A stretch of DNA of 64,000 nt from an uncultured Pseudomonadales bacterium (GTDB lineage Bacteria; Patescibacteriota; Microgenomatia; UBA1400; Chazhemtobacteraceae): contig CAYQZQ010000001.1 of assembly GCA_964422035.1 (NCBI GenBank), positions 377,013 through 441,012 on the forward strand. Direction: 5' to 3'. The translations under genes and the position numbers were made by a program. Positions 31,891-34,734 of this stretch are shown here, piece after piece. The stretch's first letter is position 1. Each line of letters begins with the position of its first letter. Under the pieces are notes generated by a model, which searched no databases, was not told the origin of the DNA, and was given only the letters and a program-made list of their open reading frames with translations.

Positions 31891-32593
31891 CCCAGTATTA
31901 CTACGGGCATGGACTATCTCTTCAACCTTTTTAATGCCTTTATCTTTTCTGGATGTGATGATCCGATTATTCTACAAAAATCCATGTGGGATCTTGTAGA
32001 AATGTAGAATCTCCAGTAATTAGGATCTGCTTTCTTGCTAGGATTGTGAATCTTACCGCAAGAAATATTCAACTTAAACAAGTAATCCCTTACTTGTTTT
32101 AAGTCATTCAGATCTTTCTGAGCAAAATAGATATAAAATCTAACTTTGCTACTTTTAGCTATTCCTCCATCAGCGTCAAAATAACCACGAATATAGTTGA
32201 TTCTATCTTTCCTGTTGGATAATTTATAATCCTTGAGCAAAGATTTAGAGAATTCAACTATGTATACTGAACGGTTTTTTCCTTCTTTATAGATCCAGGC
32301 CTTAACGCCTAGTTTTCTAATTTCAGAAGCAATAAACTCTACAAAATCTCTCGATTTTTGAGAAATTCTGTAAGTTAGTTTTCGTTCAGTGGCATCGTGT
32401 AAGACGCCGAGAAGATAAGCTTTAGACATCCACTTTAGGTGCTCGCGTATAGTCTCTACGGAGTCCCTTTTTAATTGTTAAAAAGGGTTCCCTCGCGGTT
32501 GCCCTTGATTTCAGTAAACCCGAAAGTTAACCGAAAGTCAATAGGGTTTCCCCGATACAGCGAGATTTTACTTGGAAATTACTTTCCAAGGTC
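31891..32593 (-). mobile_element. intron (probably group I) in 16S near E. coli position ~1500-1506, encoding a LAGLIDADG homing endonuclease
   Basis: 16S exon sequence '...AAGTCGTAA' ends at ~32594 (minus-strand sense) and resumes 'CAAGGTAGGCG...GGATCACCTCCTTTCT' at ~31890. The ~700 nt between contain ORF 31914..32429. Boundaries are approximate. Confidence 0.7.
31914..32429 (-). CDS. LAGLIDADG homing endonuclease (two-motif, monomeric type) encoded in the 16S intron
   Basis: First degenerate motif 'YLLGVLHDATE' and second motif 'IRGYFDADGGI'. The 171-aa ORF lies wholly inside the rRNA insertion. Confidence 0.75.
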   Translation of the reverse strand: MSKAYLLGVLHDATERKLTYRISQKSRDFVEFIASEIRKLGVKAWIYKEGKNRSVYIVEFSKSLLKDYKLSNRKDRINYIRGYFDADGGIAKSSKVRFYIYFAQKDLNDLKQVRDYLFKLNISCGKIHNPSKKADPNYWRFYISTRSHMDFCRIIGSSHPEKIKALKRLKR

Positions 32594-33002
32594 GCAACAA
32601 ATTTACGACTTAGCCCCCATCGCCAACCTTGCCTTAAGCGGCCCCGTAAGGGGTACCGACTTCGGGCACTGCTGACTTTGTTGACTTGACGGGCAGTGTG
32701 GACAAGAAACGAGAACGTATTCACCGCAGTATAGCTGACCTGCGATTACTACCGACTCCCCTTCATGTGGGCGAATTGCAGCCCACAATCCGAACTGAGG
32801 AAGGTTTTAAAGGATTAGCTCAAGATTACTCTGTCGCAACCCGTTGTACCTCCCATTACACCATGTGTGTGGCCCTAGACATAAGCGCCATGCTGATTTG
32901 ACGTCGTCCCCTCCTTCCTCCCTGATTGTACCAGGGCAGTTCCGCATGAATATTTAACATACGGTAGGGGTTGCGTTCGTTACCGCACTTAAGCGGACGC
33001 CT

Positions 33003-33258
33003 CCAAAATGTTTGAACATTACTCCAAACGTAGACTATACCTTCATCCTTTTATGTTAAAAGGAGCTGGCGTGTTATTCACATCAATAATTTGCCAAAAA
33101 GGCAGAATGTGAATCTTCATCTTGAAAATCAAGAATCTAGTCGTTACAGGGTCAATCAAGTAGAACTTGACGACTTCCCTCGGGGTTACCCTTTTTACAG
33201 GGGTTCTCCGATATGAGCCAGATTTGTCATCACCGTTACCGGTGAAGGTCGCGAAGCG
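33003..33258 (-). other. ORF-less ~255-nt insertion in 16S (E. coli ~1070-1090 region): either a third intron or an expansion segment
   Basis: Conserved 16S blocks '...GGGGTTGCGTTCGTTACCGCACTTAAGCGGACGCCTCC' and 'ATTCACGACACGAACTGACGACAACCATGCAG' are contiguous in other 16S genes. Here they are separated by an AT-rich segment with no credible ORF. Confidence 0.5.
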
Positions 33259-33982
33259 TAATTCACGACACGAACTGACGACAACCATGCAGCAGCTGTG
33301 CACCACCCTCGAAGGCGACTCCCTTTCAGGAGCTTGCAGGTGCATGTCAAATCTAGGTAAGGTTCTTCGGTTTGTATCGAATTAAACCACATGGAACGCC
33401 GGTTGTACGTTTCCCCGTCAATTCCTTTGAGTTTTAGCCTTGCGACCGTACTCCCCAGGCGGAACACTTAACGCGTTAGCTTGCGCCAGCCAGAAATAAA
33501 AATTTCCAGCCAGCTAGTGTTCATCGTTTACGGCTAGGACTACCTGGGTCTCTAATCCAGTTTGCTACCCTAGCTTTCGTTCATTAGCGTCAGTATGGTT
33601 CTAGATGTCTGCCTTCGCTCTTGGCGTTCCTCTCGATATCAACGGGTTTCACTCCTCCACCGAGAATTCCAACATCCCCGAACCTACTCTAGTCAAACAG
33701 TTTGGCGAGCTTTTCCCTAGTTGAGCCAGGGGATTTAACCCGTCACTTATTTAACCGCCTACGAACCCTTTACGCCCAGTAAATCCGGATAACGCTTGCA
33801 CCCTACGTATTACCGATGCTTCTGGCACGTAGTTAGCAGGTGCTTTCTAGAGAGGTACCGTCAGAACTTCTTCCCCCTCCACAGTGGTTTACAACCCGAA
33901 GGCTGTCATCCCACACGCGGCGTCGCTGCGTCAGACTTTCGTCCATTGCGCAATATTCCCAGTTGCTGCCACCCGTAGGTGT

Positions 33983-34734
33983 AGAACCCGTCATGTAATT
34001 CCCTCTGTTTCCAGGGGCATGGACTATATCTTCAGTCCTCAATTAGATTGAGGAGGTCAGCGTGTGATGAGCCGAAAAATCGAACTCATCTCACCTACTA
34101 TAAATAGTAGGATCAGTCTCTACGGGGTTATAGATAATCGTTGTTTAACCTCTTGGGCAATGTCATTGATGTACTCTAGTTTTGGTTTTCTTGAGTTAGC
34201 CAAACGCATTTGTTTGGCTATATCAAGAGCTGCCAGAAAAGAATTAAAATCAGTGTGCCTATCATGAGAATTAATAATTTCAAGAGCCCAAAGAGCTCTT
34301 TGTTTTTTAATTTTTAGATAGGGTAATAATTGAGGCAAGATCTGCCTAACTTTTCTGGAGCCACCCATCTCCCACTCAACCTGATTATGGTTGGCGTAGT
34401 GATGAAGATAACCAGTCTGAAGAGTTTCTTTTACCCAGTTTAAAACGTCAGCATCTTGCGGTCTTTGGGTGATACTCACCTTTATGTTGATAATCCAGAG
34501 AAAAACTCTGCGTTCATCTTTCAAAAAGGCTGGCCTAATACTGCCATCACCATCGATAAGACCAGCTAGATAAGCTGCGTCTGATTGGTTAATAACGACT
34601 TCCGAACTTCCCACGGTATTGCCATACAAAAAAATAATATATCCTCAGTAAACCCGAAAGTTTACCGAAAGTCAATGATTTTGTTTAGGTTTCACCGTTA
34701 TTAGCTGAATTTGTCTGCACAGTTACCTGTGCAG
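33983..34734 (-). mobile_element. intron (probably group I) in 16S near E. coli position ~337-340, encoding a LAGLIDADG homing endonuclease
   Basis: Upstream exon ends '...TGAGATCAACACGGGTC' (~34735). Downstream exon begins 'ACACCTACGGGTGGCAGCAACTGGGAATATTGCGCAATGG' (33982 downward). The ~750 nt between contain ORF 34120..34629. Boundaries are approximate. Confidence 0.7.
34120..34629 (-). CDS. LAGLIDADG homing endonuclease (single-motif, I-CreI-like homodimeric type) encoded in the 16S intron
   Basis: 'AAYLAGLIDGDGSI' canonical LAGLIDADG motif. The 169-aa ORF lies inside the rRNA insertion. Confidence 0.8.
   Translation of the reverse strand: MYGNTVGSSEVVINQSDAAYLAGLIDGDGSIRPAFLKDERRVFLWIINIKVSITQRPQDADVLNWVKETLQTGYLHHYANHNQVEWEMGGSRKVRQILPQLLPYLKIKKQRALWALEIINSHDRHTDFNSFLAALDIAKQMRLANSRKPKLEYINDIAQEVKQRLSITP

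Follow-up and report, generated by a model that had tools for sequence, protein, structure and literature searches.

Three predicted group I introns in a Patescibacteria 16S rRNA gene and a short hairpin that two of them have in common with group II introns

Why two insertions at different sites of one 16S ribosomal RNA (rRNA) gene contain nearly identical RNA segments, when the endonucleases that they encode are unrelated, is the question raised by a stretch of 64,000 nucleotides (the window) from an uncultured bacterium assigned to Patescibacteriota, of the candidate phyla radiation (CPR) (assembly GCA_964422035.1, contig CAYQZQ010000001.1, positions 377,013 to 441,012). The original prediction was of two 16S introns built on a common ribozyme scaffold that had swapped its endonuclease cargo. 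We compared the locus with 80 loci fetched from species-representative genomes via the family of one of these endonucleases (ORF-A; ORF, open reading frame) and with 0.73 Mb of related loci; individual loci are designated L and a number. The minus strand very probably carries a Patescibacteria 16S rRNA gene split by three group I introns, here named A, B and C, that belong to one family typical of CPR; the ORF-less intron B had been overlooked. The near-identity of the shared segments holds for both of them and has two different sources: one segment (block 2) is the 3' end of the ribozyme, and the other (block 1) is a hairpin in the P5 region that also occurs in group II introns. The coordinates of all features are given in Table 1.

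The 16S rRNA gene has AGAGTTTGATCCTGGCTCAG at its 5' end and GGATCACCTCCTTTCT at its 3' end (minus-strand reading), and it is ~3.2 kb long because of the three insertions inside it. Its nearest exons among the fetched loci are 83-87% identical; this, and the predominance of Patescibacteria among the named homologues of ORF-A, marks the host as a CPR bacterium. An exact copy of the locus is contained in the Logan assembly SRR7048227 (L001). As had been proposed, the introns interrupt the gene at different sites, ~1498 (A), ~1078 (B) and ~328 (C), which we take to be the E. coli positions on the basis of primer-site numbering. In-silico removal of A, B and C leaves a continuous rRNA sequence matching that of intron-less relatives. 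Site 1498 is unsplit in L006 (AAGTCGTAACAAGG), site 1078 is unsplit in six relatives (GTGTCGTGAGGCGT), and site 328 reads ACTGAGAT-ACGG-NNNNN-ACACCTACGGG in intron-less relatives. The sole close orthologue of intron C, found in L009, possesses identical junctions and an identical P1. The predicted junctions are therefore confirmed, as the intron-less relatives and the orthologous introns (L003 for A, L009 for C) agree on them.

Near its 5' end each intron carries a guide for the five bases that end the upstream exon; P1 would form between the two, with U.G at the cleavage site. In A and B, P10 would form between the adjoining guide bases and the initial 5-6 bases of the downstream exon, and in each intron a terminal G would dock in P7 for exon ligation. 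The U.G wobble at the 5' splice site is present in all three introns, as is the terminal G (CUUG^AACAAGG, UUUG^GAGGCG and CAUG^ACGGGU; the caret marks the splice junction). These pairing features are present in the sequence, and from them splicing is predicted. Among 59 orthologues of intron A, P1 does not vary and retains its U.G pair, and the guide at site 1078 covaries with the exon in other genomes (GGCGU/GCGCC, GCCGU/GCGGC). The suggestion that guide or P10-like sequences pair with the exons was thus well founded: P1 exists in A, B and C, P10 exists in two of them (A and B), and covariation lends support. Introns A and B have the same guide, GCGAC, and the same exon pentamer, GUCGU, which makes transposition of one of them from the site of the other a candidate explanation; however, both sites read GUCGU in this genome in any case, and the site-1078 guide follows its exon elsewhere. 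Intron B itself, in which the ORF and the P5 hairpin are both missing, looks reduced: the orthologous intron of L027 (P4 at 2692) contains an ORF as well as that hairpin, and B would be a derivative that has lost them.

A consensus fold of the 59 intron A orthologues, which were taken from the fetched loci, was obtained with RNAalifold. It contains P4, P5 and P6, and P2, P3, P8 and P9 covary, with 2-6 standard pair types per position; P7 never varies and so offers no covariation evidence. The bases after P7' form P9.0 with the last intron bases (CAUG/CAUG), and the strings GUAGAGACUA and GAAGAUAUAGUC are conserved. Comparison of intron C with L009 by eye reveals compensatory changes in P2, P7.1, P8 and P9, and the core of intron B was assigned through alignment alone. 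The P3-P4, P4'-P6, J6/7-P7, J8/7-P7' and P9 segments are common to A, B and C, and the interval between P7 and P3' (examined by eye) holds two extra hairpins in B and C but none in A. Taken together, these features support the prediction that A, B and C are homologous group I ribozymes of one family.

Several observations weigh against this assignment. The scores of the group I model RF00028 (34.3, 31.4 and 22 bits for A, B and C) are all below the gathering score of 50, though the E-values are significant. In intron C the model covers the 3' half only, and the 5' half was placed via homology to A and L009. Intron A has a G-G mismatch in P4, and no P10 was found for intron C in the junction sequence, as read by eye. 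Finally, orthologues without the P5 hairpin still look intact.

Table 1. Features of the 16S rRNA locus (window coordinates; the caret marks a splice junction)
Feature	Position	Strand	Description
16S rRNA gene	31837..35053	minus	RF00177 980.5 bits; gene ends approximate
16S exons, four	35053-34748, 33991-33265, 33003-32605, 31881-31837	minus	
Intron A	32604-31882	minus	723 nt; AAGUCGU^AACAAGG; ~E. coli 1498; RF00028 34.3 bits, E = 3e-6
Intron B	33264-33004	minus	261 nt, no ORF; GUGUCGU^GAGGCGU; ~1078; RF00028 31.4 bits, E = 2e-5
Intron C	34747-33992	minus	756 nt; ACUGAGAU^ACGGGUUCU; ~328; RF00028 22 bits, E = 0.015
Intron A junctions		minus	5' AAGUCGU^AAAUUUGUUGCGAC; 3' CUACUUG^AACAAGG; P1 GUCGU/GCGAC, P10 AACAA/UUGUU
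Intron B junctions		minus	5' GUGUCGU^GAAUUACGCUUCGCGAC; 3' CAUUUUG^GAGGCGU; P1 GUCGU/GCGAC, P10 GAGGCG/CGCUUC
Intron C junctions		minus	5' ACUGAGAU^CAACACGGGUCUC; 3' UUACAUG^ACGGGUUCU; P1 GAGAU/GUCUC, no P10 found
Exon-recognition region A	32591..32609	minus	exon GUCGU 32609-32605; P10 strand UUGUU 32600-32596; guide GCGAC 32595-32591
Exon-recognition region B	33248..33269	minus	exon GUCGU 33269-33265; P10 strand CGCUUC 33258-33253; guide GCGAC 33252-33248
Exon-recognition region C	34735..34752	minus	exon GAGAU 34752-34748; P1 loop CAACACGG; guide GUCUC 34739-34735
Block 1 of A	32502..32541	minus	P5 extension hairpin UUGAC-UUUCGGUUAACU-UUCG-GGUUUACUGAAA-UCAA
Block 1 of C	34636..34675	minus	P5 extension hairpin, distal to CCUAAA...UAUGG receptor-like internal loop
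Block 2 of A	31882..31924	minus	J8/7 GAAGAGAUA, P7' UAGUC, P9.0 strand, P9 with GUAA loop, tail, terminal G
Block 2 of C	33992..34034	minus	J8/7, P7', CAUG (P9.0), P9 with GAAA loop, ...ACAUG, terminal G
ORF-A	31914..32429	minus	171 aa; LAGLIDADG_3; P8 loop of intron A; PF14528 E = 3.5e-16, 59.7 bits (cut-off 22.5)
ORF-C	34120..34629	minus	169 aa (TTG start); LAGLIDADG_1; P6 loop of intron C; PF00961 E = 5.6e-8, 34 bits (cut-off 23.1)
tRNA-Ile	31570..31643	minus	downstream of 16S; RF00005 72.8 bits; anticodon GAU by eye

Block 2 (31881-31924 versus 33991-34034) matches at 35 of 44 ungapped positions (80%), far above chance; within it, GAAGATATAGTCCATGCCC lies at 34015-34033 and recurs at 31905-31923 with a single mismatch. 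In the Rfam alignment, GAAG...AG of the intron A copy falls at the end of the model. The block, which runs from J8/7 (GAAGAKAUA) and P7' (UAGUC) through P9 to the terminal G, is the most conserved part of any group I intron, and it is because A and C each retain P7', a GNRA-capped P9, P9.0 and the terminal G that their 3' ends look alike. The ending ...ACAUG^AACAAGG is also the consensus of the 59 intron A orthologues. Across ~70 introns the L9 loop tracks the type of P5 internal loop, GAAA occurring with CCUAAR...UAUGG and GUAA with CCUAC-UUGA...UYAA-GGG, a correlation at the sequence level only. Intron A belongs to the GUAA class (P5 CCCUA...AAGGG) and intron C to the GAAA class (P5 CCUAAA...UAUGG). 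Such pairing of L9 and P5 types is predicted by the rules of tetraloop-receptor contacts between these elements.

The predicted endonucleases of A and C proved to be as divergent as had been claimed: they belong to different Pfam families (PF14528 and PF00961), and BLASTP finds no relationship between them (E = 0.71). The notion of a swapped cargo survives to the extent that the two ORFs are unrelated; their different loops (P8 versus P6) and different families are better explained by independent insertions, so that each intron would have gained its endonuclease separately. Presumably these LAGLIDADG enzymes would move their introns by DNA homing. ORF-C contains a LAGLIDGDGS motif, and its start overlaps P5'/P4'; an alternative start, GTG at 34614 (164 aa), is the reading taken from the database copy P0121. 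The two families also differ in abundance, with 890 homologues of ORF-A, the named ones being mostly from Patescibacteria, versus 13 of ORF-C, only one of which exceeds 35% identity. The endonuclease of L009 is 65% identical to ORF-C, and none of the 80 species-representative loci fetched for their intron A orthologue has an orthologue of intron C. Homologues of ORF-A with 48-59% identity were also observed in 16S rRNA genes of archaeal metagenome-assembled genomes (L062, L066, L078, L085), at the same AACAAGG site and flanked by group-I-like core strings (CUCAGAGACUACACGC ... GAUGAUAUAGUCC). Given these homologues and core strings at the same archaeal site, the endonuclease and intron family would appear to span CPR and DPANN, Thermoplasmata and ANME (anaerobic methanotrophic) archaea. 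Group I introns have been reported in archaea.

Block 1 (32511-32542 versus 34645-34676) is identical at 31 of 32 positions (97%), again far above chance, and the string TTGACTTTCGGTWAACTTTCGGGTTTACTGA occurs exactly twice in the window (32511-32541 and 34645-34675, both minus), with 0 occurrences expected in shuffled sequences. It had been described as a 5' leader; in fact it lies 64 nt (A) and 73 nt (C) from the 5' end, and the Rfam alignment of intron A presents it as an insert in the P5 loop. The block folds as a hairpin of 10-13 bp with a UUCG loop (-14.7 kcal/mol and z = -3.2 for the intron A copy). The hairpin appears to be maintained as an RNA structure because of compensatory changes: 85.8% of cells are paired, six pairs are altered on both sides, and none of 500 shuffles is as good. 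Of its two strands, the 5' one (UUGAYUUUCGG) shows the greater conservation.

The hairpin occurs in ~25 of the 70 introns sampled, a share of between about a third and two fifths among these related 16S introns of CPR. The orthologue of A in L003 has a different P5 hairpin within conserved flanks, and so does the orthologue of C in L009, where the hairpin is AU-rich; since many orthologues do without it, the hairpin would be dispensable for the fold. A universal part of the scaffold is excluded on the same grounds. The common scaffold proposed earlier therefore stands as regards A, C and also B, which are of one group I family, but the near-identity of block 1 is not its signature, as L003 and L009 carry other hairpins and group II introns carry the block. 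Likewise, of the two blocks sought in intron alignments of relatives, block 2 was recovered as the consensus ending of the 59 orthologues, and block 1 was found replaced in L003 and L009. Neither block is conserved 16S sequence: both lie inside introns, and block 1 is missing from intron-less relatives. A genome-wide repeat of the repetitive extragenic palindromic type was rejected for block 1, of which the 64 kb hold only two copies, each within an intron. An assembly chimera at a repeat is unlikely, the copies being flanked by their own complementary strands (CCCU/AGGG in A; CCUAAAC.../...UAUGG in C; GAUC/GAUC in group II introns). In intron C, the hairpin (34643-34670, minus) is followed by AUAUAUUAUUUUUUU, and a scan calls this a terminator-like element just upstream of the ORF-C start; this arrangement is not general for the hairpin.

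The full block 1, used as an exact pattern, has no match in the species-representative genomes. A metagenome scan detected it in L006 and L007, two contigs of a related organism, within another kind of intron. We further searched the 0.73 Mb of related loci with a covariance model of the hairpin, one of two that were built (R1 and R2), and obtained 33 copies with E < 0.01. All of them are on the sense strand and inside introns. Group I introns at several 16S sites account for most, with the copy in P5, and in seven loci, representing six distinct group II introns (L006 and L007 share the same one), the hairpin is a branch of domain II. The second model, R2, was trained only on group I copies from other genomes; its scores are 52.7 bits for the copy in A, 48.2 bits for that in C and 31.6-45.9 bits for the group II copies (E = 1e-4 to 4e-8). 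As R2 was trained on group I copies only, the likeness between the classes is not circular.

The intron in L006 and L007 is inserted at CUUGUAC^ACACCGCCCG, at approximately position 1396. It matches RF01998 with 46.8 bits, and the element of L027, a Collierbacteria genome, matches with 56.4 bits (gathering score 35), directly downstream of its hairpin. These three elements were assigned to group II on a model score above the gathering threshold together with a domain V in the right order. The L006/L007 element has further matches below the gathering scores, to domain V/VI (RF00029, 24.8 bits, threshold 40) at its 3' end and to domain I (RF02003, 20.2 bits), and a LAGLIDADG_1 ORF follows its domain III. 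The 5' end of the group II element is not GUGYG. Group II elements occupy the CUUGUAC^ site in L006, L007, L015, L016, L021, L027, L035 and L068, most of them with the hairpin in domain II. Across the two classes the hairpin is identical at 29-30 of 31 positions (94-97%). The copy in C and the group II copy in L027 agree at 30 of 31 positions and their flanks are 47-48% identical, which we take to be the background of unrelated sequence; the 16S exons of L027 and the window are 83% identical, and those of the hosts overall 75-91%.

Three further observations concern these group II introns. L006 (1-1200) and L007 (1-1700) hold the same intron and apparently represent one population, L006 having an intact ORF of 195 aa and the unsplit site 1498 and L007 an internal deletion in the ORF and a group I intron at site 1498; this looks like a presence/absence polymorphism of ORF integrity and of the 1498 intron. 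In L016 (177-236), the hairpin apex is broken by a GC-rich palindrome, CCAGCCUGCCGGCAGGCAGG, a nested insertion in a group II copy. In L031 (4176-4215) and L059 (4215-4255), group II introns at a slightly shifted site (ACACCGCC^CGUCA) contain a module-like hairpin (TTGACATTTTCGGG...CTGAAA) with weak scores of 19-20 bits, located in domain III and not in domain II.

Conservation accounts for much of the match between A and C, as both copies are near the family consensus. The hairpin of the group I intron at site 1498 of L045, a host whose 16S rRNA is 75-77% identical, matches the copy in A at 28 of 31 positions and that in C at 29 of 31 (our own count). Non-orthologous hairpin pairs of at least 90% identity make up 2 of 14 pairs within genomes versus ~1-2% between genomes (permutation p = 0.02; difference in means p = 0.06; 14 pairs). 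One is the A-C pair, and the other joins sites ~790 and 1498 of L027, where the P5 hairpins (1543-1566 and 4896-4919) have an identical 24-nt core, TTTCGGTTTATCTTCGGATATACT, that their orthologues lack. This excess suggests occasional copying between co-resident introns, although the sample is small, and recent copying of this kind within the genome probably adds to the identity of A and C.

The best-surviving alternative goes further and treats block 1 as a portable UUCG hairpin of ~31 nt that has been copied between non-homologous sites, namely helix P5 in several group I introns and domain II in the group II intron at ~1396. The copying would result from recombination among introns of one rRNA gene, and selection for a common trans-acting partner may or may not have contributed. 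We regard this alternative as falling just short of an even chance. The location of the hairpin inside RF01998-matching elements (L006, L007, L027), the detection of group II copies by the group I-trained model, the match between C and L027 over unrelated flanks, and sharp boundaries lacking any flanking homology all argue for it, as do the orthologues of A and C that lack the block, the homogenised pairs within genomes and an identity of the hairpin that is high despite the distance of the hosts. However, each class also has unrelated upper stems on the same hairpin base (group II, UUGAC...AAG-UAG; group I, CCUAC-UUGA...UYAA-GGG), so an ancient or convergent origin is conceivable for part of the likeness, and stability favours a C(UUCG)G apex. 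Moreover, no known mechanism copies 24-31 nt in the absence of flanking homology, and the within-genome excess is modest. This alternative is compatible with the prediction of three related group I introns. That the hairpin has moved among group I (P5) and group II (domain II) introns of the same CPR 16S rRNA genes and has at times been homogenised, as a result of segment exchange or as a handle for a common host factor, is a possibility that we put forward tentatively.

Two kinds of known elements are instructive here. Modular tertiary motifs, the GNRA tetraloops and 11-nt receptors that Costa and Michel are said to have found in 1995 to be common to group I introns, group II introns and RNase P, are likewise short RNA elements reused in peripheral helices of unrelated ribozymes. 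P5 (docked by L9) and domain II (theta') are both receptor-bearing, and at the sequence level the types of L9 and P5 covary in the present set. In contrast to the block, the known motifs are ~11 nt long and defined by structure; here, ~31 nt are 94-97% identical, including the stem and a UUCG loop that is non-docking. Identity over such a length across the classes points to copying rather than convergence. Small mobile hairpins, such as the mitochondrial GC clusters and the double-hairpin elements of Allomyces, are known from organelle introns, and recombination between conserved elements is known from the introns of phage T4. The organelle hairpins resemble block 1 in being short palindromes with sharp boundaries in the loops of different introns. 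Block 1 differs from them in its two intronic copies in 64 kb, in the lack of a visible target-site duplication and in keeping compensatory changes.

Our working view is that the hairpin forms a stable arm at the periphery, which both intron classes tolerate at their receptor-bearing positions and which is sometimes copied between introns; a shared protein partner is possible. Pairing of its 5' strand, GACUUUCG, with the 16S loop CGAAAGUC was considered and rejected, as the proportions of GAC...GUC and GGC...GCC are similar in hosts with and without the module, and L045 has the module but a non-complementary loop. Phage T4 introns express their ORFs from internal promoters, and a service of the hairpin to endonuclease expression, as an internal promoter (TTGACT, 17 bp, TTTACT) or as a 5' processing or stability element, is conceivable but improbable. 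The element does lie upstream of the LAGLIDADG ORF in the same orientation in every context (15-110 nt away in C, A and the group II introns), its TTGAC/TTGAT is nearly invariant, its spacer length is fixed, and ORF-less introns mostly lack it (B in the window, L044, L052, L063, L087). Yet a sigma-70 scan flags neither copy in the window, and the '-10' hexamer covaries with the opposite strand of the stem, as RNA pairing predicts, so a sigma-70 promoter was rejected. A requirement for ORF expression was rejected as well, since many ORF-bearing orthologues have no such hairpin; furthermore, the ORF-less intron at L084:9721 has the element, and in intron A the element and the ORF are separated by the ribozyme core.

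LAGLIDADG-encoding group I introns of CPR rRNA genes were reportedly noted by Brown et al. in 2015, and group IIC introns with LAGLIDADG genes at 16S positions ~1396-1400 by Salman et al. in 2012. The L-loci correspond to the latter in the CUUGUAC^ site, the RF01998 match (tested in L006, L007 and L027), domain V and a single-motif LAGLIDADG_1 ORF after domain III; none of these elements is in the window, for which they are relevant through the domain II hairpin only. Several group I introns with LAGLIDADG genes per CPR rRNA gene have since been documented (Tsurumaki et al. 2024, PMC11270868), with a reported maximum of 16 introns in one gene. According to PMC11270868, LAGLIDADG_3 is confined to 16S insertions at sites 16IS5 and 16IS10, and we assume that 16IS10 is the 3'-terminal one; the ~1400 group II introns of CPR occupy site 16IS9. 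The introns described there resemble those in the window in their multiple insertions per 16S rRNA gene at conserved sites, the group-I-like RNA around single-domain LAGLIDADG ORFs, the ORF-less versions at the same sites and the high similarity of the non-ORF parts within a site; the window differs in its ~328 intron and endonuclease, which are rare, with one orthologue found. LAGLIDADG-encoding group IIC introns at rns-1396 have been described for sulfur bacteria (Liu et al. 2026, PMC13190283), with bacterial occurrence given only for Thiotrichaceae and no mention of CPR located by term search. A check of PMC11270868 by section and term gave no mention of the P5 hairpin or of its presence in group II introns, and a limited literature check covering both papers gave none of a hairpin common to the two intron classes.

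The introns, their sites (except ~328), the LAGLIDADG families and the ~1400 group II introns are thus already described for CPR (PMC11270868), and the locus re-describes a known trait, the crowding of rRNA genes with group I introns that are related but differ in their homing endonucleases. The practical gain is a precise map of splice sites, guides and ORFs for three introns, including the rare one at ~328. The hairpin shared between the classes is one unexplained and possibly new feature. If the exchange is real, intron-dense rRNA genes would be places where catalytic RNAs trade structural parts, beyond the protein genes that they carry. If the hairpin reflects a shared protein or RNA partner, organisms with as many as 16 introns to remove from one rRNA gene would have a general factor for their splicing or processing.

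The remaining proposal, that the intron ends imitate the exons they displaced, with a P10-like role in splice-site recognition, is very improbable, since the resemblance of the 3' ends to their own 5' exons is at chance level in local-alignment shuffles. For intron A, p is ~0.36 against the real 5' exon and ~0.11 against the E. coli-like string quoted earlier, which is not in the window; for intron C, p is ~0.54. Instead, the 3' end of A resembles that of C (80%), and both resemble the consensus ...ACAUG, although their exons differ. The labels at site 328 had been partly swapped, and the junction mapping contradicts the mimicry. Of the supposedly exonic string gacccgtgttgatctcagtgttc, only GAACACUGAGAU belongs to the exon, and CAACACGGGUC corresponds to the initial 11 nt of intron C (P1 loop and guide); the supposed intron string begins with gaacccgt, the real 3' exon. 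The recognition of exons by group I introns works by complementarity, which is present here at the intron 5' end, and not by similarity at the 3' end. What likeness there is lies elsewhere: the first ~20 nt of intron C (ACGGGUCUC; P1 loop, guide and 5' strand of P2) bear a marginal resemblance to the start of its 3' exon (~14 nt), in the window (34747-34728 versus 33991-33978, p ~0.06) as well as in L009 (498-517 versus 1238-1250, p = 0.03). This could let the 3' exon compete for the 3' strand of P2.

Around the 16S rRNA gene, a promoter-like site (TTGATA, 17 bp, TACAAT) is found at 35192-35220 (minus), ~140 nt upstream of the 5' end, and a terminator-like hairpin with a T run is present at 31677-31697 (minus), between the 3' end and the tRNA gene. 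There is no 23S rRNA gene within the 64-kb window. Sugar-nucleotide epimerase-like ORFs were observed on both sides of the rRNA operon.

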